Below, one piece after another: positions 3,269-62,398 of a stretch of 64,000 bases of DNA (position 1 is the stretch's first letter; each line of letters starts with the position of its first letter). The stretch lies in IMG/VR virus record IMGVR_UViG_3300045988_176431, positions 96,001 through 160,000 of that record; one strand, given 5' to 3'. Both the position numbers and the translations under genes were made by a program. Below the pieces are notes generated by a model. It was not told the origin of the DNA. It made no database searches and saw only the letters and a program-made list of their open reading frames with translations. The DNA comes from a virus.

Positions 3269-3480
3269 TAACGTGTAAATTGTCAACGTTACATACAAGA
3301 CCCAATACTAAGCGATTAGTATTTAAAAACAAGGTGAATTGCGGGGAACTCTCGTTATGTTCTAACTACTAAACTAAGATGGTAACATACTTAGTGGCAA
3401 TGGGTAACTCCTAAGGTATAGTAAAAAGGTTAGAAATAGAGACAATTCGCAACCAAGTTATTTATTAAAAAGATATATTT

Positions 3481-3489
3481 ATATATTAT
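3481..3489 (+). promoter_or_regulatory. putative promoter core (ATATATTAT) inside the intron, upstream of the homing endonuclease
   Basis: Same 9-mer as other upstream regions; 24 nt upstream of ATG 3513. Confidence 0.3.
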
Positions 3490-3512
3490 ACTTCTAAAGG
3501 AAGGTGATTATA

Positions 3513-4346
3513 ATGAATAATAACGAAAAAATAAATCAAAAAGATATGAAGGAAATAATTAAGAAGATAAATTCTTCTATATGTTTTATTGATGAAAAAT
3601 TTAAGCAATTATATATTGATGAAGAATATATACCATATATAATTTCATCAACTGGTAGAATATTTAGTATTAATTATATGCATCAAAAAGGAAATGTACA
3701 TGAATTAAAAAGTAGAACAGATAAAGATGGATATAAATTAATATTAATACATTATAATCATAAAAATTATGGTTATCATATACACCGTTTAGTTGCTTTA
3801 ACATTTATCCCTATTCCTATTAAATATAGAAAGCAAGGATATAGTAGTAATGATTTACAAGTGAATCATAAAGATGGAAATAAATCTATAAATTGTGATT
3901 GGAATTTAGAATGGTTGACTTGTAAAGAAAATATTCATCATGCTTGGAAAAACAATTTAGCACATTCTATTGGTATATATAATGGAAATAGTGTATACTC
4001 TAATGAAGATATAGAAACAGTTTGTAAATTATTAGAATCAGACTATTCTATTAAACAAATTAGCAAAAAAATAAATGTTCCATATTACATAATATCTTTA
4101 GTATTAAATAAGAAAAATTGGCTACATATAAGTAATAATTATGACTTTAGTAATTATTCATATGGAAAGAAAAAAAGAAAAGATGTTATAAATGTGTGTA
4201 AACTGTTAGAGAAAGGTGAATATAGTATAAAAGAAATAAGTAAAATTTGCAATGTAAAAACTTCATTTGTAAGTGATATTTCATCTGGAAAAACATTTAA
4301 ATCAATATCTAAAGATTTTAATATAAATATATCTTGTAATAAATAA
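3513..4346 (+). CDS. HNH homing endonuclease (intron-encoded)
   Basis: HRLVA..VNHKDGNK..NLEWLTCKENIHH is an H-N-H motif. Two C-terminal HTH-like repeats (IKQISKKINV.., IKEISKICNV..). Lies in the P6 loop of the intron. RBS AAGGAAGG. Confidence 0.85.
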   Translation: MNNNEKINQKDMKEIIKKINSSICFIDEKFKQLYIDEEYIPYIISSTGRIFSINYMHQKGNVHELKSRTDKDGYKLILIHYNHKNYGYHIHRLVALTFIPIPIKYRKQGYSSNDLQVNHKDGNKSINCDWNLEWLTCKENIHHAWKNNLAHSIGIYNGNSVYSNEDIETVCKLLESDYSIKQISKKINVPYYIISLVLNKKNWLHISNNYDFSNYSYGKKKRKDVINVCKLLEKGEYSIKEISKICNVKTSFVSDISSGKTFKSISKDFNINISCNK

Positions 4347-4572
4347 AAGGTTCAACGACTATCGAAAGGATAGCATAAGAGAAATACTTATGTGAATAAC
4401 CGAGTAGAGTAGACCAGAAGTCTGGGTGCACGAAATTTGTGCTTTACAAAGTGCCTTGCATCTTCTATTTGGTAACAGAATATGAAGATGATGATATAGT
4501 CTATTCTCAATTGTAAAATTGAGGAGTTATTTATAACTCAGTATAACTTAACGAATTATACTAAATAAAAAG

Positions 4573-5231
4573 TTGACTTTAAGAAATCAGTTACATCAGA
4601 AACAGCATCGAAGTATTATATGAATATTATTAAAGAATATCTTCTTGAACCGGAAACTCCGTTATTAAAAGAAATGATTAATGAACTGCATGAATTTAAA
4701 AAACGTATCAAGAAATCTATTGAAGATGGCGAACGGATTTATTTACCAAATGCAAATGCAAAAGAACTTGGTGCTTATAAAGACCCAAGTACATCACAAG
4801 GTGTTCGTGGTGTATTAACATGGAATATGTGTGAGCCGGATAAAATGATTGAATTTCCTGCTAAAGTAAGTTTATTAAAAATGAACTTAGAAAATGAGGA
4901 ATCAATAGAAGATATGAAAGATAAATTCCCAAATCAATACAATGCAATTAAAGAGGGAATTTTTAATGATAAAACAGGTATTTTTATTAAAGAAAAGAAA
5001 GATAAAAAAACAGGTAAAAAAGAATTAAAGAAAACTGGTATGAAAGTGTTAGCAATCCCATCAAGTGAAACAATACCTGATTGGGCATTACCATATATCG
5101 ATTATAATACTATGGTAAATAATATATTAGCACCGTTTAAATCTGTTTTGGAAATCTTTAATCTTCCAGGAGTAGAAGAAGGAAAGACTGGAAGAAAATC
5201 AACAGGACTAAGTAATATTATAAAATTATAA
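4573..5231 (+). CDS. polB: family-B DNA polymerase, C-terminal half, exon 2
   Basis: Frame is open from 4569. The junction gives KG-F-DFKKSVTSE, matching T4-type KxMGLExxKSS. Exon 1 + exon 2 = 2124 nt, in frame. Confidence 0.8.
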
Positions 5232-5233
5232 GA

Positions 5234-5277
5234 ATAAGACGTGAATACTGATTAAAGTATTCACGTCTTATTTGTTT
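5234..5277 (+). terminator. rho-independent terminator
   Basis: 15-bp stem ATAAGACGTGAATAC / GTATTCACGTCTTAT followed by TTGTTT. Confidence 0.75.
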
Positions 5278-5335
5278 ATATAACATATTTGTAGTTACAT
5301 AAAGATATATTAAAAAACAAAAGGAGTTGATTATT

Positions 5336-5875
5336 ATGTATAACACAATATTTGATATGGGGTGGAGTTTAGAAAAAACAGTTGAGGAGTTCTTTATTCT
5401 TAGTATATTTAATAAAGAATCATTCGACATGAGTGTCGATATTAAACTGTTTTACCCAATGATTCTTGTAGATAAAAAAGAGATGAGTGATAATGATAAG
5501 AACTACTATATCATTCAACTCATGCAAGAGAAATTGAAAAATCTGATTGGTATGAAAAGACATGGAATCATATCAATTACAGATGGATCCGACGTATTAG
5601 GAAAATTTGATGTTGATTCTTCTGATTTCGTAATCTCATCAATGGGTAAACATCATGATATGAATATTTTGTATAATGATGTAAAAATATCATCTTATAG
5701 TTTGGAAACTAACTGTGAGATGATTGATAAGCTCATGGATATGATATCAATCTATGGCTATTCAGCCATAGAAATCTCTGATAATGGCTTCGAAAAAGAA
5801 GCATTAAAAAGAGTTTATAATGATGCCATTCATATGAAATGGTATTCATTGTTGATTAAAAGAGAACCTTATTAA
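5336..5875 (+). CDS. hypothetical protein
   Basis: ORF with AAGGAG 9 nt upstream of ATG 5336. The track start at 5327 abuts the RBS. Confidence 0.65.
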   Translation: MYNTIFDMGWSLEKTVEEFFILSIFNKESFDMSVDIKLFYPMILVDKKEMSDNDKNYYIIQLMQEKLKNLIGMKRHGIISITDGSDVLGKFDVDSSDFVISSMGKHHDMNILYNDVKISSYSLETNCEMIDKLMDMISIYGYSAIEISDNGFEKEALKRVYNDAIHMKWYSLLIKREPY

Positions 5876-5891
5876 AGGTTCTCTTTTTTTA
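5861..5891 (+). terminator. rho-independent terminator
   Basis: Stem AGAGAACCTT / AAGGTTCTCT followed by T7. The stop codon sits in the loop. Confidence 0.7.
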
Positions 5892-5952
5892 TTTTTTTAT
5901 CCTTTCTTTTACATATGAATAAGTAAATATGAAAGAAAGGATGATTTCAATT

Positions 5953-6381
5953 ATGATGCCTTTAAATAGATTTAGGGTAACTAAATTAAAATGTTTATCT
6001 TGTGGATGTAGAGATAAACGAGTAGCAATCCTTAATTCGAAAATAACACAAAAACGAATTGGGTTTGCTACCATTTGTTGTAATTGTGGACATATTAAAC
6101 GTTACAATTTTAGAAGGAAAAAAGGATGGAGAGGAAAATTACTAAATAACAATGAAATTGTTGAAATGTTAGAAAATCGTATTTATGTATCTGAGATTTT
6201 TTGTGCAATCCCAGATCCTTTTTGTCCGAATTATGAGTGTGACTTAAAGAAATCATGTCCATGTAAAGAAGATTTAACTTATGAAGATTTGTTAAAAGGA
6301 AAGTATCCTGGTGAAGTCGTAAGACAACCAGAAGAAATAGATTTAAAAAGACAAGAAAAATCCGAAGGAAAATTTATTTAG
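5953..6381 (+). CDS. Cys-rich (zinc-ribbon-like) protein
   Basis: CLSCGC..CCNCGH and CPNYEC..CPC cysteine pairs. Start uncertain (ATG 5929/5941/5953); 5953 best fits the GAAAGG spacing. Confidence 0.6.
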   Translation: MMPLNRFRVTKLKCLSCGCRDKRVAILNSKITQKRIGFATICCNCGHIKRYNFRRKKGWRGKLLNNNEIVEMLENRIYVSEIFCAIPDPFCPNYECDLKKSCPCKEDLTYEDLLKGKYPGEVVRQPEEIDLKRQEKSEGKFI

Positions 6382-6397
6382 AAAGGAAAATAAGAAA

Positions 6398-7147: not shown

Positions 7148-7216
7148 ATAAAAGTATTATTTATACATCATTTTATTGATATAAAAAATACATAAAAATA
7201 AAAGGAGGAAAATATT

Positions 7217-7939: not shown

Positions 7940-7951
7940 GCAATAGAAAAA

Positions 7952-7993
7952 AGAGGAAATAATTAAATTTAATTATTTCCTCTTTTCTTTTTT
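7952..7993 (+). terminator. rho-independent terminator
   Basis: Stem AGAGGAAATAATT / AATTATTTCCTCT followed by a T-run. Confidence 0.75.
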
Positions 7994-8004
7994 CATGAAA
8001 GGAT

Positions 8005-8757: not shown

Positions 8758-8823
8758 CAGATAGAATCAAAAAATACAAAAAACAGAAAATTAATATATT
8801 TGTAGAAAGGAAGGATAACTTAT

Positions 8824-10932
8824 ATGCCAACAAAAATGGAACCTGTTGTAAAAACAGAAGAATTAGTTCAGAAAAGTGAACGACAATTAGAATTAGAAGA
8901 AAGAAGAAAATTCTTTCATGGAGAACCGCTTTTGAATGTGGTAAAAAAAGATGAATTTCAAAAGAGAGTTGCTAAAGTATTTAAAGAAATTTCAGATGTT
9001 TTAGCATGTTCTTTTGGTGCATCCGGAGCACCAACAATTATTTCAAAATATCCATATTCTCATGTAACAAAAGATGGATTTACAATCTTTAAAAATATTA
9101 CATGTGATATTGAATGTGGTAGTATTATCGATTCTGTCATCGCTAATTTGATTGGAGATATTTGTGGAAGACTCAATTATAAAGTTGGTGATGGTACAAC
9201 AACAGCTATTGTTGCTACGAATGCAATTTATGAAGCTTATTATGAAAATAAAGAGTTCTTTGAACGTAATAATATTCTTCCACGTGATATTGTGAAAGAA
9301 TTTGCGAAACTTAAAGATCATATTGTAGAACAGATTAAGAAAGAAGCTGTTCATTTTACAGATGACAAAGAAGAGATGTTAGATACAATTGAAAAGATTG
9401 TACGAATCTCTAGTAATGGAGATGAAGAACTTACAAGAATGATTCGTGAGATTTATGATAAAATCGGATACCCATCAATTACAGCAGAACTTTCAAAAGA
9501 TGCTGTCACTAGATATCAAATTATTGATGGTTTCCGTACTGGTGTTATGCTTACAGATAAGATTTATGAGAATACAGATGATGGGTTCTTTGATTCGAAT
9601 AATCTTGATGTAATCATCTTTGATCATCGTGTAGATACAAAGGCTTATGAAAAAATTATTAAGCCTCTTAATATTGTCTGCAAAGCACAGGGAAGAGAAC
9701 TTATGGTAATCGCACCTACTTATTCAGATAATACAATTCAGAATGAAATCCGAAAAGACATTTTATCAGAGTATAAAGAAACAAGAAAGTCAAGTTTGAT
9801 TCTTTGTGTTTGTAAAGCACAGACTGCTAATGCAAAACGTTCTTTAGCAGATTTGGCGATGCTTTTAAATACAACGATTATTGATAGAAACTTTGCACAG
9901 GATATTATTGGAGATTGTATTAATAATTCAGCAAATCCATTTTATGCTTGTACTTATTTCAATTTCAATCGAGGAATTGAAAATCTTGCTTATATTAAAC
10001 AGAGTAAAGAGGGAGTAATTCAGGCAGTATTTGATGATTCCAATTCGGAATTGGAAGAATATCCAATGAATGAAAAATGCATCGATGTAGGTTTTACCGG
10101 AAAGGTTTCAGCAGGAGAGAATTATTCCATCTTCTCAGATTTCCATTATAATGAAGCCCTTTATAACAAGTTCTTAGATGATGCAAAAACAACAATGGAT
10201 GATTTAGTTGAAAAGTATGCAAAACTCGGAACTTTCAATTATGAAGTAACAGAAGCAATGAAGCGTTATAGTTCATTACAGTTGATGACTGCTGTAATTG
10301 AAGTAGGTGGTGATTCAGAACTTTCACAGGCAATGTTGAAAGATTCTGTTGAGGATGCAATTCGTGCGGCTGAATCTGCTTATAATAATGGATATATTCT
10401 TGGTTGCAATGTAACAACAATGAAAATTATTGAGGATATTGTTCATAATGAAATTCAATCAGAAATATCAAGTAGATTATATCGTATACTTTATAGTGGA
10501 TTATCTAAAGTATATGATACAGTTCTTTCAAATGCTTTTGGTAAACCAACGTTCAGATACAATGTAGATGAAAATACAAAGGAAGATTTCTTATCTTATG
10601 TAGAAAAAACGCTTGGAATCAAATCAGATATATTCAATATGGAAACATTGGATGAAACATTTGATATTTTGAATAAAGATATGAATGATTATTTTGATGC
10701 TCACCCAAATGCAGAACGTAGTACTGAATATTGGGATATTGATATAATCGGTGTTCTTAATAATCAAAGTGTTAAAAACTCAGTCGTATTTGATTTGAGC
10801 ACAAAAGAATTTAACAAGGATGTTATTAACAGTGCGGCAACTGATATTGAGGTATTAACTGCTGTTGTTGACCTTATGAGTATTCTGATTACAGGAAATC
10901 AGTTGATTGTTACCGGTAAACATAATTTCTAG
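8824..10932 (+). CDS. phage chaperonin, GroEL/Cpn60 family (enlarged, 702 aa)
   Basis: VGDGTTTAIVATNAI (GDGTTT ATP-binding signature) and HVTKDGFTIFKNI (compare TKDGVTVAKEI). RBS GAAAGGAAGG. Confidence 0.75.
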   Translation: MPTKMEPVVKTEELVQKSERQLELEERRKFFHGEPLLNVVKKDEFQKRVAKVFKEISDVLACSFGASGAPTIISKYPYSHVTKDGFTIFKNITCDIECGSIIDSVIANLIGDICGRLNYKVGDGTTTAIVATNAIYEAYYENKEFFERNNILPRDIVKEFAKLKDHIVEQIKKEAVHFTDDKEEMLDTIEKIVRISSNGDEELTRMIREIYDKIGYPSITAELSKDAVTRYQIIDGFRTGVMLTDKIYENTDDGFFDSNNLDVIIFDHRVDTKAYEKIIKPLNIVCKAQGRELMVIAPTYSDNTIQNEIRKDILSEYKETRKSSLILCVCKAQTANAKRSLADLAMLLNTTIIDRNFAQDIIGDCINNSANPFYACTYFNFNRGIENLAYIKQSKEGVIQAVFDDSNSELEEYPMNEKCIDVGFTGKVSAGENYSIFSDFHYNEALYNKFLDDAKTTMDDLVEKYAKLGTFNYEVTEAMKRYSSLQLMTAVIEVGGDSELSQAMLKDSVEDAIRAAESAYNNGYILGCNVTTMKIIEDIVHNEIQSEISSRLYRILYSGLSKVYDTVLSNAFGKPTFRYNVDENTKEDFLSYVEKTLGIKSDIFNMETLDETFDILNKDMNDYFDAHPNAERSTEYWDIDIIGVLNNQSVKNSVVFDLSTKEFNKDVINSAATDIEVLTAVVDLMSILITGNQLIVTGKHNF

Positions 10933-10948
10933 ATTGAGGTGAAATTCT

Positions 10949-11782: not shown

Positions 11783-12610
11783 ATGAAATATTTGCCAGTT
11801 AAAAAATCTAATCCAGTAGAGGAAATTGATCGCTCAAAATTAAAGAGCAAAATCAATATCTGGAAACCAAAGAAATCTGAGATTATAGTGGAACAAGATG
11901 GAAATATTTTTGTCTGTCATTTTGACAAGATTTTCAATCAACCAAATCTCAAACCCTTAACTAAATTTATTATTAAAAAATCTAGTTATATCAACCAATT
12001 ACCAGTCATTACAAGGTATACAAACTTTTTCATGAATTGTTATGATACAGAGAATGACTTAGCAATGGCTTATTTGAAGATTAAGTATGCTCTTGATAAA
12101 GAGAGAGTATTTAATGAAACAAATACTTCTGCATTAATTGATATGATATATGAGATTCTTTTTACACCAAGGCTTTGTGAAAAGATTACTCGTATGGTAG
12201 AAGAAAATTACTTAGATGATATCGAAAAAGGGGATGGAAAGAAATATAAAAAGAATAAAGACTACTTAGAAAGTCTTGAATTCACCAATGAACATATTAA
12301 GATTCTTCTTAGAATCTCATTTGGTATTAAAATCATGTCACCGATTCTTTTTCATTATCTTACGATTAATAATATGAATAAGTTGGATAAAGACAGTGAT
12401 TTGATTTACAAGTTCTATGAAAGACTGTTTCCTTTGTTCTCCGGAAACGTCAATATGTTTAATAAGCTCTTTGTTTATTGTAAAACAAAAGTACTGGATG
12501 CATCTGCACATAACAGTACAATCTTTGAACAAAGAGAAATTTTTGGTGTAGATAAGTATTCAGTTATTGATAAATTTGTGAGAAAAGTAATTATCTCAGA
12601 AAACATGGTT
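11783..12610 (+). CDS. conserved-looking unknown protein, exon 1 of 5
   Basis: ORF is open to 12640, but the last 10 codons are intron sequence. The 5' splice site after U12610 is set by the P1 pairing. Start is ATG 11783 or TTG 11792. Confidence 0.7.
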
Positions 12611-12955
12611 AAAGTATTTGATCATGTAAAACCTCTCTAATTGCGGGGAACTCTCGTTAGGTCTTAACTACTAAACTAAGATAGTGATATACTTAGTGGC
12701 AAGGGGTAACTCCTAAGGTATAGTAAAAAGGTTAAGAATAGAGACAATCGACGCAGGGAAGTATCTCTTATGAGATATGGCTTCATCGACTAGGGAAAGA
12801 CTAATTTATATTAATTAGAATCGAGTAGGTCCAATTATAGGACGAAATGTAGGTGAGTATATATAATATATACAAAAATCCGAAACGGGAGGCATTGATA
12901 TATTTAGTAATAGAATATATTAATGAAGATATAGTCAGTGTAATATAAAAACATG
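12611..12955 (+). ncRNA. group I intron A (ORF-less, 345 nt)
   Basis: P1: ACAUGGUU (12603-10) pairs with GAUCAUGU (12620-27), U.G at U12610. P10: AAAUAC (12956-61) pairs with GUAUUU (12614-19). P3: CCUCUC pairs with GGGAGG (12887-92). P7: GACTA / TAGTC. Omega-G at 12955. Confidence 0.8.
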
Positions 12956-12982
12956 AAATACTTGTTCAATGAACACTGGGAT
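12956..12982 (+). CDS. micro-exon 2 (27 nt, KYLFNEHWD)
   Basis: Bounded by P10 of intron A and P1 of intron B. In frame with no stop. An alternative 3' splice site after G12964 would give 18 nt, also in frame. Confidence 0.6.
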
Positions 12983-13324
12983 AGACGTTTCATGTTCCAG
13001 TATAAAAACCTCTCTAATTGCGGGGAACTGTCTATAATGATTATTTACTAAACTAAGATGGTGACATACTTAGTGGCAAGGGGTAACTCCTAAGGTATAG
13101 TAAAAAGAATAATCATTGACACAATCGACGCAGCGAAGTATCTTATATGAGATATGAGTTCAACGACTATCGAAAGTATAATTATAAGAGAAATCTTATA
13201 ATGAATAAACGAGTAGAGTAGACTGATTTAATCAGGTGCATGAAATTGATGCTTTACGAAACGGGAGGTATTGATATATTTGGTAATAGAATATATCAAT
13301 AAAGATATAGTCTAATTAAAATAG
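12983..13324 (+). ncRNA. group I intron B (ORF-less, 342 nt)
   Basis: P1: ACUGGGAU (12975-82) pairs with GUUCCAGU (12994-13001), U.G at U12982. P10: GUGAAAC (13325-31) pairs with GUUUCAU (12987-93). Internal helix covaries (AATGATTATT / AATAATCATT). Omega-G at 13324. Confidence 0.8.
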
Positions 13325-13361
13325 GTGAAACAGAAAAAATACAAGGAGAACATTGTTGGAT
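13325..13361 (+). CDS. micro-exon 3 (37 nt, VKQKKYKENIVG + 1 nt)
   Basis: Bounded by P10 of intron B and P1 of intron C. No stop in frame. Confidence 0.6.
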
Positions 13362-13739
13362 CAATATTAGGTTCAACCAAAACCTCTCTAATTGCGGGGA
13401 ACTATCTATAATTAATAACTACTAAACTAAGATAGTGATATACTTAGTGGCAAAGGGTAACTCCTAAGGTATAGTAAAAAGGTTATTAATTGATACAATC
13501 GACGCAGCGAAGTATCTCTTATGAGATATGAGTTCAACGACTAGGGAAAGCTAGACAACCATATTGATAGAAATATCTAAAAGAATATAATATTCTGATG
13601 GTTTGATGTGAGTAGGTCCAATGATAGGACGAAATGTAGGTGAGTATATATAATATATACAAAAATCCAAAACGGGAGGTATTGATATATTTGGTAATAG
13701 AATATATCAATAAAGATATAGTCTACATTGAAAAATGTG
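13362..13739 (+). ncRNA. group I intron C (ORF-less, 378 nt)
   Basis: P1: GUUGGAU (13355-61) pairs with GUUCAAC (13371-77), U.G at U13361. P10: UUAAUA (13740-45) pairs with UAUUAG (13365-70). P9 GNRA hairpin ACATT-GAAA-AATGT. Omega-G at 13739. Helix covariation AATTAATAAC / GTTATTAATT. Confidence 0.8.
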
Positions 13740-13752
13740 TTAATAAAACGAT
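13740..13752 (+). CDS. micro-exon 4 (13 nt)
   Basis: TTAATAAAACGAT. The first 6 nt form P10 of intron C; the last 4 nt form P1 of intron D. Completes the codons F-N-K-T-I(..). Confidence 0.55.
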
Positions 13753-14223
13753 TAATTTAATAGTCGCAATGATATAAAGAAATTTATATCTGGACAAACC
13801 ATCCTAATTGCGGGGAACTCTCGTTAGGTCTTAACTACTAAACTAAGATAGTGATATACTTAGTGGCAAGGGGTAACTCCTAAGGTATAGTAAAAAGGTT
13901 AAGAATAGAGACAATCGACGCAGCGAATATGCTTTGAAATAAATAATAACATGTAAAGAAATAGGAGATAGATTAGGAATGACAAGAAATGCTGTTTGGA
14001 ATATTAAACAAAAAATAAATTAAACAAAATCAAAGCATAATGTTCAACGACTATCGAAAGTATAGGTTAAGAGAAATACTTAACTGAATAAACGAGTAGA
14101 GTAGACTGATTTAATCAGGTGCACGAAATTGGTGCTTTACGAAACGGATGGCGTATTATATTTGGTAACAGAATATAATACGAAGATATAGTCTAACCTA
14201 TGTAGTGATATATGGTATAAGTG
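13753..14223 (+). ncRNA. group I intron D (471 nt, with a decayed endonuclease remnant)
   Basis: P1: CGAU (13749-52) pairs with GUCG (13763-66), U.G at U13752. 7-bp perfect P10: UAUUAAA (14224-30) pairs with UUUAAUA (13756-62). P2 GNRA hairpin 13771-90. P3: CCAUCC pairs with GGAUGG (14146-51), a compensatory change. Omega-G at 14223. Confidence 0.75.
13943..14023 (+). pseudogene. remnant of a homing-endonuclease C-terminal HTH (26 codons) in the P6 loop of intron D
   Basis: Open frame IITCKEIGDRLGMTRNAVWNIKQKIN* at the position where the three intact HNH genes sit in their introns. Resembles their C-terminal HTH repeats. Confidence 0.45.
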
Positions 14224-14941
14224 TATTAAATTTCAGATGAATTATTTTCTTAAGGAGCAGTATGAGAAAACAATGACCGAGATTTCTAACACAAAAAATA
14301 GTGATGGATTATCCGGTCAAGATAAAATGGAAATGAATTTGACTAAGATTGATGAAGGTATCACAACTCTTAGTGAGTTCAATATTAAGAATTGTATTGA
14401 ACGTATTCAAAGAGAGATTGATATTCCAATCTCAGATGAAGAAATTCAATATTATAGGGACCATCATATTCCTAGCCCTATTCAGATTCAATTGGTATAT
14501 TCGTACTTTGCAGAATATTTTACGGATTATCGTGATTTGAACCTTTTAACAAGAAGAGATTATCTTCATTTATTACTTTTATTAAAGAAGAAACTCTTAA
14601 TTGAGGCTGGATATGATGAGAAAGAAAATGAATTTACAGATGCGATTCTTCCATATATTCTAACAGGAAATTTGGAAGAAAAAGTTTCTACTCGAATGAT
14701 TCGAAACAACAAGTTTATTTCAAAGATTGAAACGAATTATATGTATCAACAGTTAGTAGAAAAGAAGTATAAGCATCTGCAAGAATTAAAGAAAGACTAC
14801 ATATTACAAGTATTATCTTCGATTATCAATACGAATTTTACTTATGTAGTTTATGAGGAACCTGAAATGTTAGGAAAACCAATTGTTTATAATGAAGATA
14901 AAATCTCGGATGAACTCTTGTTTTTCTTAAAATGTATTTAA
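14224..14941 (+). CDS. conserved-looking unknown protein, exon 5 of 5
   Basis: Frame is open from 14192. There is no RBS before ATG 14237. The five exons total 1623 nt (541 codons), in frame with no stop. Confidence 0.7.
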
Positions 14942-17410: not shown

Positions 17411-17419
17411 ATATATTAT
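17411..17419 (+). promoter_or_regulatory. putative promoter core (ATATATTAT)
   Basis: Intergenic, 82 nt upstream of ATG 17501. Followed by a 15-bp hairpin at 17433-17467. Confidence 0.35.
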
Positions 17420-17500
17420 TTATATGAGTGATAAAATGAGTAGAAATTTAATATTTCTACTCATTTTCATATGAATAAAGAAAGGATGATGTAAAAATTT

Positions 17501-20855: not shown

Positions 20856-20900
20856 GTGAAGTCAAATATCTATAATTGGATATTTGACTTCACATTATTT
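20856..20900 (+). terminator. rho-independent terminator
   Basis: 15-bp stem GTGAAGTCAAATATC / GATATTTGACTTCAC followed by ATTATTTT. Covers the track's nominal start at 20884. Confidence 0.75.
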
Positions 20901-20937
20901 TAAAATTTTATTTAATAAAAGGAGTGTGATTTTTGTT

Positions 20938-21794
20938 TTGGGTAAACAAATTGTAAGAATCAATCGACTCAGTTGGGATATTTTATTTTATGATGATATG
21001 ATAAATGGTGATGGTTTTATCATATCAGAACCTGCTGAAGTAAAAATCGATCGAGAAAGAAAAAAGTCTCTTTATGGTCCACAATCTCCACTCTATGGTA
21101 CAACGTATTCAGATGAGCAGGCATTTATTGAACGTTATCGTTGTGAGTGTGGAAATTTTAAAGGAAGACAATTTGCAGGGGAAGTATGCCCCATTTGTAA
21201 AACAAAAATTGAAAGTAAAGGAAGTAATGTAAAAACAACAGGATGGATTTGTACCGGAAATGCAAGATTTATTAATCCATTCTTTTATCAGCTTCTTGTA
21301 AAAGCGATTGGAAAGAAAATCTTTCCAGATATTATTGATTGTAAACAACGTGTCGATACAGATGGACACCGAAGTCAATATGTACCAGAAGATACAGAAC
21401 CACTTTCTCCTTATTCTGGATTTGGTATTGAAGAATTCATGAACCAATATGAAAATATTCTTACTTATTTTCAGACAGTAAGAAAACAAAAATACGATGA
21501 TCTTCAATATCTAAAAGAGAACAAATCTAAAGTATTTGCTTCTCATATTCCGATTTATACGACAATGTTACGTCCGCAAAGTGTCACAAGTGATACTTTT
21601 TATTTTAATGGTATTGATCGAGAAATCAATCCTCTCTTTAATCTTTCAGAAAGTATTAAAGATTGTAATCCAATTGAGCGTCCATTTATCTTACAAAGAA
21701 TACAAGAGCGTGTAAACAACATCTTTGAATTTAACTTTGATATGATTAATGGTAAAGAAGGATGGATTCGAGGAAAACTATTAGGTGGCTCGTT
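20938..21794 (+). CDS. multisubunit RNA polymerase beta' N-terminal-half subunit, exon 1
   Basis: Zn ribbon CECGNFKGRQFAGEVCPIC. GKEGWIRGKLLGGS matches GKQGRFRQNLLGKR. Start uncertain (TTG 20938 after AAAGGAG). The tail ..NCGELSLSLNY* is intron read-through. Confidence 0.8.
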
Positions 21795-23085
21795 AGTGCG
21801 TTATAATTTGACGAGCTTTATAAACTCATCTAATTGCGGGGAACTCTCGTTAAGTCTTAACTACTAAACTAAGATGGTAACATACTTAGTGGCAAGGGGT
21901 AACTCCTAAGGTATAGTAAAAAGGTTAAGAATAGAGACAATCGACGCATCGAAGTATCTTAATATTATTATATATTTATAAGAAAGGTGGTGAGATAATG
22001 ACGTCACATATTATAAAATTTAACAACATGGACAGTGATTATGTCATTTATGAAGATTGCACAATTATTAATATAAAAACTAATCATATTATGAAACATC
22101 GAATAAGTAAAAGTACAGGACGAGTGTATGTTCGTTTAACTAATAATAAAAAAAGAAAAGAATATAGATTATCAAGATTAATGGCTACATATTTTGTAGA
22201 AAATCCTGATCCAAAAAATAAAGTTGATGTTCATCATAAAGATAAAAATGTATTAAATAATGTACCAAGTAATTTGCAATGGGTTACAAAAGAAGAACAT
22301 TATTTGATACATAAAGGTGATAAAAATCATCCATTTTCTAGTGGTGAAAATCATAGTGGTGCTATATTAACTAATGATCAAGTACATGAAATATGTAAAT
22401 TGATTCAAGATAACATTATGTCTCAAAATGATATTGCGAGAAAATATAAAGTAATGCCACATGTTATTCATGAGATTCGTTTAAAACATAATTGGAATGA
22501 AATAACAAAATATTACGATTTTTCAAAATATTCGTATGGGAATAATTTTCTAAAAGATGATAAAGTAAAAGAAATTTGTTATCTGATTGAATCAAATAAG
22601 TATACATTGATGGAAATATCAAAAAAATCAAAAGTTACTTATTCTACAATTCTTGATATTTATCATAAAAAACGATATAAAAGACTAAGTGATAATTATG
22701 ATTTTGATAGATTCAATAAGTTAACAAGATATAGCAAAGGACTTAAGAAAAAAATAAATTTTTTAATTAATGAAGGAAAATCAAATAATGAAATTAAAAA
22801 TATATTAAAATTAGATAATTGTGCAAAAACGAATACTCTATTGTGTAGAGAAAGAAAGAAATCAAATCAATAAAAAAATAATATTAAGATATGAGTTCAA
22901 CGACTATCGAAAGTATAGCATAAGAGAAATACTTATGTGAATAAACGAGTAGAGTAGACTAGTATATATTATACTAGGTGCATGAAAATTGATGCTTTAC
23001 GAAACGGTGAGTGTATTATATTTGGTAACAGAATATAATATAATGATATAGTCTAAACTTCTATGGATAACATAGAGAATATTTG
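21795..23085 (+). mobile_element. group I intron with HNH homing endonuclease (beta' intron 1)
   Basis: P1: GCUCGUU (21788-94) pairs with GACGAGC (21810-16), U.G at U21794. 7-bp perfect P10: AAAUUAU (23086-92) pairs with AUAAUUU (21803-09). Omega-G at 23085. Same core as the other introns. Confidence 0.85.
21998..22873 (+). CDS. HNH homing endonuclease (intron-encoded)
   Basis: RLSRLMA..VHHKDKN..NLQWVTKEEHYLIH, with two HTH-like C-terminal repeats. RBS AAAGGTGGTG. Confidence 0.85.
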   Translation: MTSHIIKFNNMDSDYVIYEDCTIINIKTNHIMKHRISKSTGRVYVRLTNNKKRKEYRLSRLMATYFVENPDPKNKVDVHHKDKNVLNNVPSNLQWVTKEEHYLIHKGDKNHPFSSGENHSGAILTNDQVHEICKLIQDNIMSQNDIARKYKVMPHVIHEIRLKHNWNEITKYYDFSKYSYGNNFLKDDKVKEICYLIESNKYTLMEISKKSKVTYSTILDIYHKKRYKRLSDNYDFDRFNKLTRYSKGLKKKINFLINEGKSNNEIKNILKLDNCAKTNTLLCRERKKSNQ

Positions 23086-23343
23086 AAATTATACGGCTCG
23101 TAACGTAATTATTCCAGATCCATCTTTACATGATGGGGAAATTGATGTATCTTATCATACATTTAGAATCTTATTTAAATATAAGATTATTTATTATATG
23201 ATGAAGATTAACGACATACAGTTATCAAAAGCATATCATAAATGGAAGAATAGTTATAAGTTTAATCAACACATTTATGAAATTATGTTGTACATCTTAA
23301 AGAAAGAAAAACCAAGAATATTAATCAATCGAAATCCGACACT
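23086..23343 (+). CDS. RNA polymerase beta' N-half, exon 2
   Basis: L-NYTARNVIIPDPSLH.. matches YSGRSVIVVGPxL. Ends ..ILINRNPT(L), matching LLNRAPTL. Confidence 0.8.
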
Positions 23344-24479
23344 AATAGAAGTTTGGTGTCATTAAACTCTTCTAATTGCGGGGAACTCTCGTTAAGTCTT
23401 AACTACTAAACTAAGATGGTAACATACTTAGTGGCAAAGGGTAACTCCTAAGGTATAGTAAAAATGTTAAGAATAGAGACAATCGACGCAGCGAAGTATC
23501 TTCAATATATAAAAATACTATAGTAATTGAGAGGTGATAAATATTGCCAAAGAAAAGAAAGAAATTAAGTGAATTTCTTTTATCATATTATAAATTAATA
23601 GAAGAAAGTGATGAAAAAGAATTATGGAAAGATATTAATTTAGGAGACTTCCCAATATACCAAATAAGTAATCATGGTAGAGTTCGAAGGAAAGATAGTA
23701 AATTCATAATTAATCCTTTTCATTCTTATCGAAAAGATAATAATGGTAACTTTAGATATGATAGACCAACTTATCTCAGAGTTCAATTATATTATTACAC
23801 TAATGGGGTAAGAATGAAAAAACATATGGAAATAAGTAGGCTTGTTGCAATAAATTTTATACCTATACCAAAAATATATACTGATAAGGGATTAGATGAG
23901 AATTCTTTAGAAGTAAATCATATAAAAGGTGGTTATGAAATTTACAATAATTTTGTATCAAATTTAGAATTGTGTACAACAAAAGAAAATGTAAAAAAAT
24001 CAATTGAAACAGGTTTGAGACATTCACCGTATGGAGAGAATCATCATAATACATTTTTTACAGAATATGATGTGATGCAAATATGTGAATGTATTGAAAA
24101 AGGTTTTAATGCAAAGTATACTTATTATAATATTGATTTATCTGATAAATCAATAACATATGATCATTTTAAACAAAATTTTTATAGTATAAAATATAAG
24201 AAATCTTGGAAATTTATAAGTCAAAATTATAATTTTTAATTTATTGAAGATATGAGTTCATCGACTAGGGAAAGCTAGACAACCATATTGATAGAAATAT
24301 CTAAAAGGACTCCACATCCTGATGGTTTGATAAGCGAGTAGGTCCAATCATAGGACGAAATGTAGGTGAGTATATATAATATATACAAAAATCCGAAATG
24401 GAGAGCAATGATATATTTGGTAACAGAATATATTAATGAAGATATAGTCAAACTGTATAGAGATATACTAGATTTATTG
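23344..24479 (+). mobile_element. group I intron with HNH homing endonuclease (beta' intron 2)
   Basis: P1: GACACU (23338-43) pairs with GGUGUC (23355-60), U.G at U23343. P10: GAAUUUC (24480-86) pairs with GAAGUUU (23348-54). P9 GNRA hairpin GTATA-GAGA-TATAC. Omega-G at 24479. Confidence 0.8.
23544..24239 (+). CDS. HNH homing endonuclease (intron-encoded)
   Basis: WKDI..YQISNHGRVRR N-terminal motif; ISRLVA..VNHIKGG..NLELCTTKEN. TTG start after GAGAGGTG. Confidence 0.8.
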   Translation: MPKKRKKLSEFLLSYYKLIEESDEKELWKDINLGDFPIYQISNHGRVRRKDSKFIINPFHSYRKDNNGNFRYDRPTYLRVQLYYYTNGVRMKKHMEISRLVAINFIPIPKIYTDKGLDENSLEVNHIKGGYEIYNNFVSNLELCTTKENVKKSIETGLRHSPYGENHHNTFFTEYDVMQICECIEKGFNAKYTYYNIDLSDKSITYDHFKQNFYSIKYKKSWKFISQNYNF

Positions 24480-24762
24480 GAATTTCTATTCATTACTTTT
24501 AATGAAAATAAGAAATGTAAAAAAGGATGATACAGATTTTACATTATCGGTTCCACTTGCGATTTTACCGGGATTAAATGCCGATTTCGATGGAGATGTT
24601 CTTAATATGCTTGGTATGATGAATGAAGAATTCGTGAGAATGTTCAGAAAGTTTGACCCAATTAAGCGAATGATTATTTCAAGAGATACCGGACTTATCA
24701 ATAATTATTTTACAATTGAAAAGTCACAATTGATTGATTTATATCATTTTGCTACAGTATAG
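24480..24762 (+). CDS. RNA polymerase beta' N-half, exon 3 (catalytic loop)
   Basis: ..LPGLNADFDGDVLNML contains the universal NADFDGD Mg-binding motif. The gene ends about 40 aa later, consistent with a split beta'. Confidence 0.85.
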
Positions 24763-24899: not shown

Positions 24900-25637
24900 A
24901 TGAGTAAGAAATATGAATTGACAGATGAAACTATGGAATTTGATGGTCACACTCTACATAGAATTAGAGCGTTGAAGAGTTTTTCTGATGTAATGAAAGG
25001 TGATCTTGGAGGATGGGTAGAATCTGAAGAAAACCTGTGGCAATCAGAGAATTGTTGGGTTTATGATAACGCAAAAGTATATGATGAGGCAAACGTGGAA
25101 ATAGATGCTGTTGTACGAAATGAAGCATGTGTTTGTAATAAGGCAAGAGTTACAGATTCAAAGGTTATGGATAAAGCATTTGTTTCAGGTCTTCTCGATG
25201 TTGACCGTAATGCAATTATTAAAGGTTCAGCAAAAGTTACTGGTGTTGGACCAATTCACAAAGCCGTTATTAAAGATAACGCAGTTATCAGAGGATCCAT
25301 ATTCATCGATGGACAAATTACAATTGGAGATAATGCGATAATTGATTCATCAAAGATAGTATATTTAGAGCATTATTATGAAATTGGAAAAGATGCTTAC
25401 ATCCAAGATAATTCTGATATAATCGAAATATCAATGATGGATGATCATCAAGATTTTTATACATTTTATCGTACAAAAAATAAAGAAACAGTTAATGTGA
25501 TATCTAACGTTTATTCTGGTTCATTATCTGATTTTGAAAACAAAATGAAATTGGAAGATAAAAAGATACCAGATAAAGTAAAATCAATGTTAGATATGGT
25601 AAAAGGATATTTTGAATTACACAAATTATCTGATTAA
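24900..25637 (+). CDS. beta-solenoid (hexapeptide-like repeat) protein, paralog family member 1
   Basis: N-terminus MSKKYELTDET..RIRALK..GDLGGWVESEENL..CWVYDNAKV, followed by 6-residue periodic N/D-A-x-V/I repeats. Confidence 0.7.
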   Translation: MSKKYELTDETMEFDGHTLHRIRALKSFSDVMKGDLGGWVESEENLWQSENCWVYDNAKVYDEANVEIDAVVRNEACVCNKARVTDSKVMDKAFVSGLLDVDRNAIIKGSAKVTGVGPIHKAVIKDNAVIRGSIFIDGQITIGDNAIIDSSKIVYLEHYYEIGKDAYIQDNSDIIEISMMDDHQDFYTFYRTKNKETVNVISNVYSGSLSDFENKMKLEDKKIPDKVKSMLDMVKGYFELHKLSD

Positions 25638-34311: not shown

Positions 34312-34665
34312 ATGAAATATTATGCTTATCTATTATCTAAAGAAGATATAAAAGATGGTAGAAAAAAGGGCTTAGCATATGCTATTAAAAACAAAAATAA
34401 ATGGGTTGATATTTCTGCAGTGAAAGATGAAATAAATACATATGATAAAGGTACCACTGTATTATCTTATAAACAAACAGCCTATAATATTTATAAAGAC
34501 TATGTTTCAATTGATGAACAGTATCGTGTTTATATTTGTGAAGAAAGAGGATATGATTACGATAATAAAGAATTTATTGAAAATACTTTTTATCCAAAAA
34601 AAGAAACTGAAACAACTACACCAGATAAATCCGATTCATCTAAAGATTCTAACACTGGAAAATAA
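34312..34665 (+). CDS. hypothetical protein
   Basis: ATG 34312 follows AAAGGAGA. The track start at 34249 lies inside the terminator. Confidence 0.6.
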   Translation: MKYYAYLLSKEDIKDGRKKGLAYAIKNKNKWVDISAVKDEINTYDKGTTVLSYKQTAYNIYKDYVSIDEQYRVYICEERGYDYDNKEFIENTFYPKKETETTTPDKSDSSKDSNTGK

Positions 34666-34670
34666 TTTTA

Positions 34671-34704
34671 AAAGTTGCAGTAGATTTTTTCTACTGCAAC
34701 TTTT
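34671..34704 (+). terminator. rho-independent terminator
   Basis: 13-bp stem AAAGTTGCAGTAG / CTACTGCAACTTT followed by a T-run. Confidence 0.75.
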
Positions 34705-34731
34705 AATTCACTGGTTTTCTTATATATTATA

Positions 34732-55735: not shown

Positions 55736-55743
55736 AAAAATAA

Positions 55744-55776: not shown

Positions 55777-55794
55777 TATGTGCCGGATGAGAGT

Positions 55795-57597: not shown

Positions 57598-57631
57598 TAG
57601 AGAGAATAGGAATTTTCCTATTCTCTCTATT
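57596..57631. terminator. bidirectional terminator
   Basis: 15-bp stem AATAGAGAGAATAGG / CCTATTCTCTCTATT. Confidence 0.8.
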
Positions 57632-57634
57632 ATT

Positions 57635-58555: not shown

Positions 58556-58573
58556 TTTTTTCACCTTCCTTTT

Positions 58574-59761: not shown

Positions 59762-59776
59762 ATAATTCACCTACTT

Positions 59777-60646
59777 TCAATTATTAAAAGAAGAATAAAA
59801 ATCTTTTACTTCATTTACAGAATTTGGATCTAATTTACAATAAATCATATTATTTCCATCTTTTATAATACCATATTCTTTGGAAACATCGAATCCTACA
59901 AATTCGTCTTTTGATAATTCAAAGGATTCCATAATAAGATTCATATTAATGTCTTTATGACCAACATTTTCAAGAATCTCTTTCAATGGTAATAATACAT
60001 CTTTCGAGTATTCTCTTACTTTATCAACTGCAGATTCTGTTACTGTTTGAATTGCTTTCATAACACCCTTTGCTTCAGATGTAGCATGTGCTTCTTTATG
60101 AGATGGATATAATACCCAATCATAAGTAATTACTTTTCTTGCAATAACAGTTGGTTTATTTTTAATCAACTGAAGACCAGCAAGAGCACGACAACTGAAA
60201 GCAGGATTTAATCCTTGAATAATCTCAGATGCAAATCCACGACCTGCTTTTGTTCCAGAAGCTGTTTCAATATGTGCATATAACATATTATCTTTAAAAA
60301 CAGGTCTCATAATTTTATGAGACCGACGACTCATTTCAATCGTATTAATACGTTCTGGTGTTAATGGTTGATTTTTGTATTTTTGTAACGGATGATCCAT
60401 CTCTCCATACCAAGCATTATCTGCTAATAATGATTGAAGTCTCTCTGTTTTAAAACATTCTTCAATATTAGAAGAAATATATTGTCGAGAATTACGGTTA
60501 ATTACTTCAAAAGATTGTAAGCATGTATCAAAACTTACAAAGAATACACCATGTTTATCAACTGCATCAACATTTTGGATTTTGTAATCTTCAGGACTTG
60601 TTTGTTCTGCGATATACATAAATCCTAAATCATTTATATCTTGCAT
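59777..60646 (-). CDS. possible prohead maturation protease (T4 gp21-like?)
   Basis: Motifs WYGEMDHP and YDWVLYPSHKEAH recall prohead serine proteases. This is recognition from memory only. ATG 60646 follows GAGGTG. Confidence 0.4.
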   Translation of the reverse strand: MQDINDLGFMYIAEQTSPEDYKIQNVDAVDKHGVFFVSFDTCLQSFEVINRNSRQYISSNIEECFKTERLQSLLADNAWYGEMDHPLQKYKNQPLTPERINTIEMSRRSHKIMRPVFKDNMLYAHIETASGTKAGRGFASEIIQGLNPAFSCRALAGLQLIKNKPTVIARKVITYDWVLYPSHKEAHATSEAKGVMKAIQTVTESAVDKVREYSKDVLLPLKEILENVGHKDINMNLIMESFELSKDEFVGFDVSKEYGIIKDGNNMIYCKLDPNSVNEVKDFYSSFNN

Positions 60647-60789
60647 TGATGTCACCTCAATTCTTTTTTCTTAATTTCTATTAAACTAATGTTTTTTCAA
60701 TAAATCATACAACTCTGGTAATTTTCATCAGATAGATTTTAGATACTCATAAGACATTTAGATAATTATTTTGATAAAGGAGAATCAAA

Positions 60790-62027
60790 ATGGTAAATAA
60801 TATTAAAAAAGAACAAAGAGCAAATATCTTAAAGAATCTAAAAGATATTAAAATGTCCAAATTAAAGATCAAAATGGATATTACGACATTAGATATGATT
60901 ATATCGTTCTTATATAAAGATAGCGTATTAAGAACAAGAAAAACCATGAATAACATTATGAAATTAATGAATTCATTGGATTATCGAATTTATGAAAATG
61001 ATGATAATGAACCATATATCATGTCACGTATTTGGATTATACAAAAAACGTTAGAAGCAAGATTAATTGAGGGTTTTGCAAACGATGACATGATTAAACA
61101 ATATTGTTTTGACCATCCAGATTGTGATGAGTATAAAAAAGAAATATTAGAAGATGTTCTAAAACATGGAGCAAAGATTACTCATGATGAGAGTAAATAC
61201 TTAATTAAGCAAATTGATGACCGTTTAAATTTTGGTTATACGATTACCTTAAAAGAAATTTTTATGGAACTTCTAAATCGTTTGGATGAAGGAGATTTTA
61301 GAAGTTATAAAGCAATATCAGAAGATTTATATCAAATTGCATCTTCTGTAATAAATATCAGACGTTCCACAAGCAGTCTTGGTGCAGACCAAACATTTTC
61401 ATTACAAGATGAGATATTCCAAACAGTAATTCCAGATGCATTGAATCGATTAAAAGATAGGAATCGAATTTTTATTACTGGAATACGTCGTTGGAATACT
61501 ATTTTATCCCCTGGATATATGAGTAAACGTCTCTATACATATTTAGCATTTCCGGGTGGTGGTAAAAGTCAAATCTTATTAAAAACAGCACTTGATGTTA
61601 GAAAATATAATACAAGGATTCAAACAAAGAATCCAGATAAAAGACCTGCTGTTTTATTTATTACAATGGAAAATAGTATTGAAGAAACAGTAGAGCGAAT
61701 TTTTAATATGACAGCTTCGAATGATGACATTCGAAATTATACAGAAAAACAAGTAATAAAGAAATTAAAAACAGAGGGTGGACTTACTTTAACAGAGAAA
61801 AATAATATTGATATTATCATTCAATATTATGATAATAGAAGTATTGATACAAATGATTTATATGGTATCATACAGGATTTAGAGGATGAAGGAATTGAAA
61901 CAGTAATGCTTATCCTCGATTATGTAAAACGTATTCGTCCAGCAGAAAAAGGAGAAAGCGAAAAAATAGAATTAAAAAATATTACAAATGAATTAAAATC
62001 ACTTGCAAATTATTTCGACATACCCGT
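60790..62027 (+). CDS. dnaB: DnaB-like replicative helicase, exon 1
   Basis: Walker A AFPGGGKSQILLK, Walker B-like MLILDYVKR. Ends ..LANYFDIPV. The tail DNTAA* is intron read-through. Confidence 0.75.
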
Positions 62028-62398
62028 TGACAACACAGCGGCATAAATTTTATATTTATGAAAACCTATCTAATTGCGGGGAACTATCTATAATTAATAA
62101 CTACTAACTTATGATGGTGACATACATAAGGGCAAGGGTTAACTCCTAAGGTATAGTAAAAAGGTTATTGATTGATACAATCGACGCAGCGAAGTATCTT
62201 ATATAATAATATATTAAGATATGAGTTCAACGACTATCGAAAGTATAGGTTAAGAGAAATACTTAACTGAATAAACGAGTAGAGTAGACCAGAATATCTG
62301 GGTGCATGAAATTGATGCTTTACGAAACGGTAGGGATATTATATTTGGTGGCAGAATATAATATCATGATATAGTCTATTTAATTAAAAAATTAAATG
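62028..62398 (+). ncRNA. group I intron (ORF-less, 371 nt) in the helicase gene
   Basis: P1: CCGU (62024-27) pairs with GCGG (62038-41), U.G at U62027. Hairpin CATAAAT / ATTTATG. P3: CCTATC pairs with GGTAGG. Same core with compensatory changes (CTTATG / CATAAG). Omega-G at 62398. Restores ..IPV-V-VTAQQLNR. Confidence 0.8.

Follow-up and report, generated by a model that had tools for sequence, protein, structure and literature searches.

Intron-bearing genes of the window

The window analyzed here is a stretch of 64,000 nucleotides (nt) of viral DNA, positions 96,001 to 160,000 of the IMG/VR record IMGVR_UViG_3300045988_176431. Its source is an uncultured AT-rich jumbo phage, a distant relation of the AR9/PBS1, Staphylococcus S6-like and phiR1-37 phages. 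In this window, eight elements that are very probably group I introns of a single family interrupt four replication and transcription genes, which encode a DNA polymerase (PolB), an RNA polymerase subunit resembling gp226 of phage AR9, an RNA polymerase β' subunit and a DnaB-like helicase. The features are listed below, with a slash in a protein sequence marking a splice junction.

1786-3268, + strand: PolB exon 1; opens at TTG 1786, first ATG at 1804; matches PF20286 divDNApol (E = 3e-28) and phrog_2927 (E = 2e-60)
3269-4572, + strand: intron a, 1304 nt, with an HNH open reading frame (ORF) in P6; P3 CAAGGU/GCCUUG; terminal G at 4572
3513-4346, + strand: HNH ORF of intron a, 277 amino acids (aa); ribosome-binding site AGGAAGGTGA; lies between the P6 strands UUAUUUAUU/AAUAAAUAA
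4573-5231, + strand: PolB exon 2; PF20286 profile positions 534-690; in-frame junction ..DVKG/FDFKKS..
11783-12610, + strand: gp226-like exon 1, 828 nt
12611-12955, + strand: intron b1, 345 nt, without ORF and without P2; P1 ACAUGGUU/GAUCAUGU of 8 base pairs (bp); P10 of 7 bp
12956-12982, + strand: gp226-like micro-exon 2, 27 nt; KYLFNEHWD, the conserved KYKFNEHWD of uninterrupted homologs
12983-13324, + strand: intron b2, 342 nt; P1 ACUGGGAU/GUUCCAGU of 8 bp; P10 GUGAAAC/GUUUCAU of 7 bp
13325-13361, + strand: gp226-like micro-exon 3, 37 nt; VKQKKYKENIVG plus 1 nt; homolog consensus xKQKKYKENIVG
13362-13739, + strand: intron b3, 378 nt; P1 of 7 bp; P10 of 6 bp
13740-13752, + strand: gp226-like micro-exon 4, 13 nt; completes F, encodes NKT and begins I; GFNKTII in homologs
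13753-14223, + strand: intron b4, 471 nt; P10 of 8 bp; 89-nt insert in the P6 loop
14224-14941, + strand: gp226-like exon 5, 718 nt
20884-21794, + strand: β' N-terminal exon 1, true start uncertain; matches phrog_2987 (E = 8e-21) and, by tblastn, phiR1-37 g274
21795-23085, + strand: intron c, 1291 nt, with an HNH ORF in P6; P1 GGCUCGUU/GACGAGCU of 8 bp; P10 of 8 bp
21998-22873, + strand: HNH ORF of intron c, 291 aa; flanked by the P6 strands GUAUCUUAAUAUUAU/AUAAUAUUAAGAUAU
23086-23343, + strand: β' exon 2, 258 nt; protein 100% identical to that of 3412-3669 in locus L018 of a near relative
23344-24479, + strand: intron d, 1136 nt, with an HNH ORF in P6; P1 GACACU/GGUGUC of 6 bp; P10 of 9 bp
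23544-24239, + strand: HNH-family ORF of intron d, 231 aa; TTG start; ribosome-binding site GAGAGGTGA
24480-24762, + strand: β' exon 3; contains NADFDGD
60790-62027, + strand: helicase exon 1; matches PF20307 divDNAB (E = 1e-16), PF03796 (E = 1e-9) and phrog_19 (E = 6e-23)
62028-62398, + strand: intron e, 371 nt, without ORF; U·G at 62027; terminal G at 62398
62399-62885, + strand: helicase exon 2; junction IPV/VTAQQLNR

The first-pass annotation of the window had placed the introns at 3269-4572, 12611-14223 (the array of four), 21795-23085, 23344-24479 and 62028-62398, and these outer coordinates proved exact to the base. Its estimate of about 5.6 kb of intron, or about 9% of the window, agrees with the measured 5638 nt (8.8%). 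It had also ascribed all intron hosts to information processing; this is correct, and the four-intron gene, which it had left unnamed, encodes the gp226-like RNA polymerase subunit.

The interrupted polymerase is a divergent family B DNA polymerase. With intron a removed, its protein aligns over 1-707 in a single high-scoring segment pair (HSP) with the uninterrupted homologs at loci L002 (71%) and L120 (45%). The β' gene is that of the N-terminal β' subunit of the jumbo-phage multisubunit RNA polymerase. Its spliced product aligns with phiR1-37 g274 over 46-477 in one piece with E = 3e-45, compared with 3e-18 for exon 1 alone, and residues 118-431 align with AR9 g270, spanning both junctions. 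The first of these junctions, LLGGS-L-NYTARNVI, aligns to IMGSRINFSARNVI of AR9, and the second, NRNPT-L-NF, lies just upstream of NADFDGD. The fourth host gene is that of a divergent DnaB-like helicase, residues 247-423 of which align with L078 in one HSP, across the junction at residue 412.7. In these three genes, the splice junctions fall within highly conserved motifs.

The four-intron gene is, on the evidence of profile searches, homologous to that of AR9 gp226, the subunit that gives the non-virion RNA polymerase its promoter specificity. In particular, a profile of its protein and 15 homologs matches chain A of PDB entry 7S01 with E = 2e-23 over residues 19-462 of 464, and we take this chain to be gp226 because the paper on 7S01 gives gp226 as 464 residues (PMC9209446). 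The gene also matches phrog_25005 'RNA polymerase' with E = 7e-8. The protein has 519 homologs at E <= 0.001, and the best 120 of these are nearly all full-length.

The introns b1-b4 of this gene are separated by exons of 27, 37 and 13 nt, so that four of the eight introns lie within 77 bases of coding sequence. When they are removed, the coding sequence (CDS) is 1623 nt long and in frame, with its terminal stop as the sole stop codon. The product reads ..ENMV/KYLFNEHWD/VKQKKYKENIVG/FNKT/IIKFQ.., where the third and fourth junctions split the codons for F and I; the family consensus that it matches is ..ENMVKYKFNEHWDxKQKKYKENIVGFNKTIIKYQ... In an alignment with 39 uninterrupted homologs, the spliced protein matches through all four junctions.

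Removal of the introns therefore restores conserved motifs, as the first-pass annotation had stated, and leaves all four genes in frame and colinear with uninterrupted homologs; none of the homologs compared carries the intronic segments as protein, a finding that the annotation had named as refuting. Among the restored motifs that it had quoted, KG/FDFKKS, LLGGS-L-NYTARNVI and NRNPT-L-NF stand as written; the helicase motif has one V fewer than given there, namely IPV/VTAQQLNR.

Ribozyme structure and predicted splice sites

The 13-mer AATTGCGGGGAAC, which covers J3/4 and the 5' strand of P4, has exactly eight exact copies in the window, all on the + strand, at positions 3337, 12639, 13016, 13390, 13806, 21832, 23374 and 62072. 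By our own estimate, about 0.002 exact copies of a 13-mer are expected by chance in 128 kb; one further match only was found, with 3 mismatches, and it looks random. Each copy is followed after 150-1220 nt by the P7' motif (A/T)GATATAGTC. Profiles of the 5' and 3' halves of the ribozyme, searched with nhmmer, each give eight matches with E = 1e-22 to 1e-39 at these same eight places (for example, 3e-34 and 3e-37 in intron e) and nothing else, so that the proposal of eight introns of one family holds and no degenerate extra copy is found in the window by either profile.

The architecture is of phage-type IA2, with P1, an optional P2, P3-P9, and P7.1 and P7.2 between P7 and the 3' strand of P3; here the IA2 label refers to architecture, that is, P7.1/P7.2 together with an extended P5 region. 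The P3 pairings quoted in the first-pass annotation, and those of its 'long internal helix' (P5a) and 'hairpin' (P5b), are all found as written. Introns b1, b2 and b3 have identical P3, P4, P6 and P7 strands. An unconstrained minimum free energy fold of b2 recovers P1, P3-P6, P7.1, P7.2 and P8 with z = -4.4.

Compensatory changes had been cited in favour of this structure, and they are now formally supported. The cores of the eight window introns and of 19 family members collected from IMG/VR through a 14-mer (27 sequences in all) were aligned with MAFFT, and a hand-drawn structure of 52 pairs, comprising P3-P8 and including the P7 pseudoknot, was scored against controls with slid partners and against 500 shuffles. 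Standard pairs are formed in 93.0% of the cells, compared with 36-45% for slid partners and 77.8% for shuffled alignments; 34 of the 52 pairs are changed on both sides (slid, 12-17; shuffled, 18.3±2.2), and the covariation score is 0.364 (slid, 0.05-0.08; shuffled, 0.116). Whichever measure is taken, none of the 500 shuffles equals the observed value. P3 covaries at all six of its pairs; P5, P5a, P5b, P6 and P8 covary too, and compensatory variants are also seen in P7.1, P7.2a and P7.2b.

The group I assignment has further support from the Rfam model RF00028, whose gathering score is 50 bits. At a permissive E-value, the model aligns over its full length with b2 (43.6 bits), b4 (37.3 bits) and b3 (34.4 bits), with E = 9e-8 to 5e-5. 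These alignments cover the canonical J3/4-P4, J6/7-P7 and J8/7-P7' sequences and match the canonical core strings AAUUGCGGG, GUUCAACGACUA and AAGAUAUAGUC. In the near relative described below, the endonuclease-free introns at the b4, c and d sites score 68.1, 58.2 and 56.6 bits, respectively. Four loci of this relative contain 14 RF00028 matches at E <= 0.001, eight of which are at or above the gathering score (53.6-71.5 bits). Full-length alignments in the window and above-threshold copies of the same family in relatives together support the group I architecture.

All eight introns have a U before the 5' splice site, a terminal G, and a P1 of 4-8 bp in which this U forms a U·G wobble. In intron a, for example, the 5' exon end GGGUU pairs with the guide GACCC, and in intron e, P1 consists of CCGU/GCGG and 2 bp that extend into the intron. 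A P10 of 6-9 bp, directly 5' of the guide G, is present in six of the eight introns; 0.1-1.6% of random positions match each of these. The guide sequence of each intron pairs with its own flanking exons, and the short exons of the array are shared closely between neighbouring ribozymes: in the 13-nt exon 4, the first 6 nt belong to the P10 of b3 and the last 4 nt to the P1 of b4, leaving 3 nt between them.

Two other accounts of the 5' part of the array were considered. One placed the 5' splice site of b2 at 12959, with the helix CAUGAAAU/GUUUCAUG, a 4-nt exon and an in-frame product. It was rejected since the homolog alignment showed eight residues to be missing, and exon 2 is 27 nt; the strand GUUUCAU of the rejected helix is in fact the P10 guide of b2. 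The other derived b1 from a tandem duplication of exon 2, the first 10 nt of b1 being the same as the start of exon 2 in L001, an ENA contig. This was mostly rejected: the codons for Lys-Tyr-Leu are nearly palindromic, and a P10 guide complementary to the exon therefore mimics a synonymous variant.

The P10 guide of b2, GUUUCAU(G), also fits an 8-bp helix with CAUG-AAAU, which consists of the last 4 nt of b1 and the first 4 nt of exon 2. Such an alternative helix, or the strands shared among b1-b3, could force the introns to be spliced in a certain order or let exons be skipped; the loss of exon 2 alone would keep the reading frame.

Endonuclease genes and intron content of relatives

The first-pass annotation had reported three divergent HNH endonuclease ORFs in P6, and these are indeed located between both P6 strands of introns a, c and d. 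Each of them is preceded by a GGTG-type ribosome-binding site. The ORF of intron a matches phrog_59 (E = 4e-38) and PDB entry 1U3E (E = 1e-8), and reaches 16.6 bits with PF13392, under the cut-off of 24.8. The ORF of intron c matches PF13392 HNH_3 at 31.2 bits (same cut-off), phrog_59 (E = 2e-29) and 1U3E (E = 8.5e-7), and that of intron d matches PF07463 NUMOD4 at 25.3 bits (cut-off 23.4) and phrog_59 (E = 4e-22). The entry 1U3E was deposited as 'HNH homing endonuclease', and we take it to be I-HmuI, from the DNA polymerase intron of Bacillus phage SPO1. By homology, then, the three ORFs are putative endonucleases.

The three ORFs are mutually 26-32% identical (26-30% between that of d and those of a and c), whereas the P4-P6 domains of the ribozymes are 79-100% identical. 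Since P4-P6 is conserved and the ORFs are divergent, the ribozymes and the endonuclease genes have different histories. The other five introns of the window are without an intact endonuclease gene. In b4, the P6 loop (13935-14030) contains the 89-nt insert, with an AGGAG-like ribosome-binding site and a short ORF that reads ..KEIGDRLGMTRNAVWNIKQKIN up to its stop codon; this is probably what is left of a decayed homing endonuclease gene, namely its helix-turn-helix tail. No relative of the insert was found outside the window among the loci retrieved.

The family can be followed in a near relative, the 249-kb IMG/VR contig IMGVR_UViG_3300045988_176405, which is 93-98% identical to the window at the DNA level. 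With at least 18 copies of the intron family in its 249 kb, it indicates that a high load is typical of the clade. The site of intron a is occupied there by an intron of about 470 nt without ORF (L094), and that of intron c by one of 373 nt, also without ORF (L018). A third β' intron appears as 358 nt inserted at a point that is uninterrupted in the window (24551/24552). In the gp226-like gene (L122 3300-5831), the relative has six introns with internal exons of 27, 37, 13, 19 and 81 nt; the extra introns, of 405 and 420 nt, are at positions where the window is contiguous at 14242/14243 and 14323/14324. The idea that this gene was free of introns in the near relative was accordingly rejected. 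A polymerase-like gene of phrog_2943 (L027 361-2413), which sits upstream of the region that matches the window, has five tandem RF00028 matches in 2.1 kb. The alignment between L122 and the window ends at 13927, just before the P6 loop of b4, and the L122 intron at the b4 site is about 383 nt long, compared with 471 nt.

The ENA contig L001 is about 97% identical to the window. Its b1 site is empty, exons 1 and 2 being contiguous (L001 6580-6627), and the intron at its b2 site has a body like that of b1. A gene caller that read on from the exon into this intron has produced the database protein P0070. Of the nine nucleotide differences that separate L001 from the window across 855 nt of CDS, three are no more than 6 nt away from the empty b1 site; synonymous differences cluster there at -1, +3 and +6, as a co-conversion tract or a change conferring immunity to cleavage would give.

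Parts of the introns have also been exchanged between copies. Introns b1 and b4 are 100% identical in P4-P6 and 49% identical in the P7-P7' domain; in these two domains, the near relative's intron at the d site (L018 3659-4021) is 92% and 49% identical to intron d. There are two alternative types of P7.1/P7.2 module, and intron d and this counterpart carry different ones. More distant relatives have introns at still other sites of the same genes; in IMGVR_UViG_3300039335_000151 (L146 1200-2500), for example, the gp226-like gene is interrupted after ..YVYVNQK, at a point close to residue 235 of the window protein, by a 1.3-kb member of this intron family that contains an ORF of 292 aa. As near-identical relatives show empty sites, extra or endonuclease-free introns and swapped modules, the family is mobile and recombining. 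In a megablast search against 50,697 phage records, the array had no match, and no close isolate is among them; the best protein identities were 25-32%.

Three further features of the window lie outside the introns. A gene for a GroEL/Cpn60-like chaperonin at 8824-10932 (phrog_5725, E = 1.5e-62; PF00118 in the homologs of relatives) lies two genes upstream of the gp226-like gene in conserved synteny. Paralogous repeat-rich ORFs without assigned function at 24900-25637 and 62965-63810 (phrog_7964, phrog_5070), with N-termini alike in ..YELTD..GGWV.., are each directly downstream of an intron-bearing gene (β' and DnaB, respectively). Long near-perfect AT-rich intergenic hairpins at 17418-17478 and 34655-34716, which give spurious Rfam microRNA matches, are probably terminators or other regulatory hairpins.

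Proposed mechanism, alternatives and known systems

We hold it to be highly probable that the eight elements are paralogous group I introns of IA2-like architecture, three of them with HNH genes, in genes of a jumbo phage. After transcription, each ribozyme would fold so that its guide pairs with 4-8 nt at the end of the upstream exon, the U·G wobble coming last, and usually also with 6-9 nt at the start of the downstream exon (P10). Exogenous guanosine would bind the P7 pocket and attack the 5' splice site; the terminal G of the intron would then take its place in the pocket, and the freed 5' exon would attack the 3' splice site. Splicing would in this way restore the mRNAs of the DNA polymerase, the gp226-like subunit, β' and the helicase. 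In co-infections with relatives, the three I-HmuI-like HNH endonucleases would presumably cut or nick the relatives' intron-free alleles and so cause homing. The five copies without ORF may be decayed versions, of which b4 keeps a remnant, or may have spread by other routes. The conserved ribozyme bodies recombine among copies, while the ends remain site-specific.

Several points weigh against this interpretation. We infer catalysis, and hence splicing, of the eight introns from their sequence. P1 is only 4 bp long in b4 and e, apart from the 1-2 bp that run into the intron, and introns a and e have a P10 of just 3 bp. In the ORF of intron d, the HNH motif (NHIKG) deviates from those of the other two ORFs (NHKDG and HHKDK). 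In the covariation analysis, P4 and P7 are invariant but uninformative, since the 27 sequences were picked by exact P4 and P7' motifs, and many of these sequences are close relatives, which inflates the cell counts. The search with RF00028 that the first-pass annotation proposed as a check had a divided outcome: copies of the same family in the near relative reach the gathering score, but no window copy does so (at best 43.6 against 50 bits), and cmscan leaves five of the eight unreported even at a permissive E-value. We attribute the low scores of the window copies to long insertions in P5, P6 and the P7.1/P7.2 region.

Some of these points would also fit dead intron relics, in which case the interrupted genes would be pseudogenes or separately expressed fragments, comparable to the naturally split β/β' genes of jumbo phages: splicing is a prediction from sequence, the window copies are under the Rfam gathering score, and any endonuclease gene is lost from five of the eight. 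Exons as short as 13, 27 and 37 nt, however, are untranslatable on their own, and the downstream exons are without start codons and ribosome-binding sites (an in-frame ATG at 14237 in exon 5 has no such site). Moreover, the strands of the catalytic core are all intact, the guides fit the local exons at P1 and P10, the helices are maintained by compensatory change, and the exons are conserved as protein against the 519 homologs. An independent IMG/VR assembly (L122) keeps b1-b3 and the start of b4 at 97.5% identity over 4.6 kb, and overall we consider decay to relics very improbable. The same assembly bears on the array at 12611-14223, which might be suspected to be an assembly artefact, either a mis-join of repeats or an expansion of one intron, because the copies share stretches of 86-100% identity in P4-P6 and short-read assemblers can mis-join such repeats. 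Agreement of L122 through b1-b3 into b4, support from the independent ENA contig L001 for exon 2 and the 5' end of the b2-site intron, the unique ends of each copy (P1, guide and P9), which fit its own micro-exon, and the conserved peptide that the micro-exons jointly spell make an artefact barely credible.

A different alternative accepts splicing and holds that the ribozymes mainly serve the phage, as a timer for the late-transcription specificity subunit or, through their endonucleases, as weapons against co-infecting relatives. The introns are concentrated in RNA polymerase and replication genes, intron content varies between near-identical co-occurring genomes, and gp210 of phage PhiPA3 is a precedent (PMC11620839). 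Conserved motifs of essential genes are nevertheless equally expected as the targets of selfish homing elements, and five of the eight introns are without an endonuclease gene, so that we regard a mainly phage-serving role as unlikely. A related and more speculative proposal, which we find doubtful, concerns the arrays. One ribozyme body would have recently multiplied in this phage lineage through new guides, giving four to six near-identical ribozymes in 77-177 nt of coding sequence of a σ-like late-transcription subunit. Expression would then need ordered, non-interfering folding, and the array would act as a splicing gate or a source of exon-skipped isoforms for the late RNA polymerase rather than being neutral selfish DNA.

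With the eight elements read as mobile group I introns, some consequences are practical: in this clade, the genes for PolB, β', the helicase and the gp226-like subunit will be truncated or fragmented by gene callers if the introns are left in place (P0070 is an example). The understanding of what group I introns are is unchanged by these findings. The family is, however, a natural experiment in how such introns reach new sites, with near-identical bodies and retargeted guides. Micro-exons down to 13 nt serve as the P10 partner of one ribozyme and the P1 partner of the next, and tandem look-alike ribozymes raise a problem of folding specificity and exon skipping. To our knowledge, this problem has so far been studied only in orf142 of phage Twort and in engineered Tetrahymena tandems.

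The closest described system is AR9 g270, which belongs to the same gene family (the N-terminal β' subunit of the non-virion RNA polymerase) and has a group I intron with an HNH endonuclease. The CDS of g270 is annotated as two pieces around the HNH gene g271 (PF13392 and PF07463), and the 3' ribozyme domain of its intron is about 70% identical to that of b2 over 160 nt. This intron, however, interrupts the catalytic motif DYDG, some 30 codons further downstream than intron d; g270 is uninterrupted at the c and d sites; and its CDS has one intron (two pieces in the stretch examined), compared with two in β' of the window and three in that of the near relative. Concerning the endonucleases, the likeness to the I-HmuI type consists in the matches of the a and c ORFs to 1U3E, the NUMOD4/HNH_3 domains and the location of the intron in a replication or transcription gene; the window ORFs differ in having longer C-terminal helix-turn-helix regions. 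PhiPA3 likewise is a jumbo phage with an intron-borne HNH homing endonuclease, gp210, which was shown to matter in the competition of co-infecting phages (PMC11620839). PhiPA3 is a nucleus-forming Pseudomonas phage with a single intron, and the competitive role shown for it is conjectural here.

A published counterpart of the array is Twort orf142, which has three group I introns, a 23-nt exon between introns 2 and 3, and exon skipping (PMC10136302). It too has several IA2 introns of the same family in one gene, with very short exons between similar ribozymes (PMC10136302, PMC11878797). The differences are the number of introns (three, as opposed to four here and six in the near relative), the shortest exon (23 nt, as opposed to 13 nt) and the host, a tail tube protein there and a σ-like RNA polymerase subunit here. 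Similarly, an exon of 34 nt separates two introns in the 23S rRNA of Coxiella (PMC10136302), and Bastillevirinae genes have at most three introns each (PMC11878797). Our literature search found no phage gene with four or more group I introns, which is not proof of absence.

At the level of whole genomes, the load resembles that of the Jug and crAss-like phages, which have many group I introns per genome in essential genes. In Jug phages, 2513 group I introns were found in 136 genomes, with a mean of 18.5 per genome, and splicing was confirmed for about half of them by metatranscriptomes (PMC12880540). On average, a Jug intron measures about 206 nt; terL is divided by such introns into two or three pieces, and nrdD into several. 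Here, by contrast, the introns without ORF are 342-471 nt long and belong to one recombining family, with arrays of four to six per gene, and the phage lineage is another one, with AR9-like RNA polymerase genes, related contigs being about 250-290 kb. The first-pass annotation had called the intron load unusually high for a phage region; this is so in comparison with classical phages, where we found at most three introns per gene, but not in comparison with this clade or the Jug phages. In short, the kind of element is already known, and its local density, with four introns (six in the near relative) in 77-177 nt of coding sequence, is higher than in any phage example that we found in the literature.

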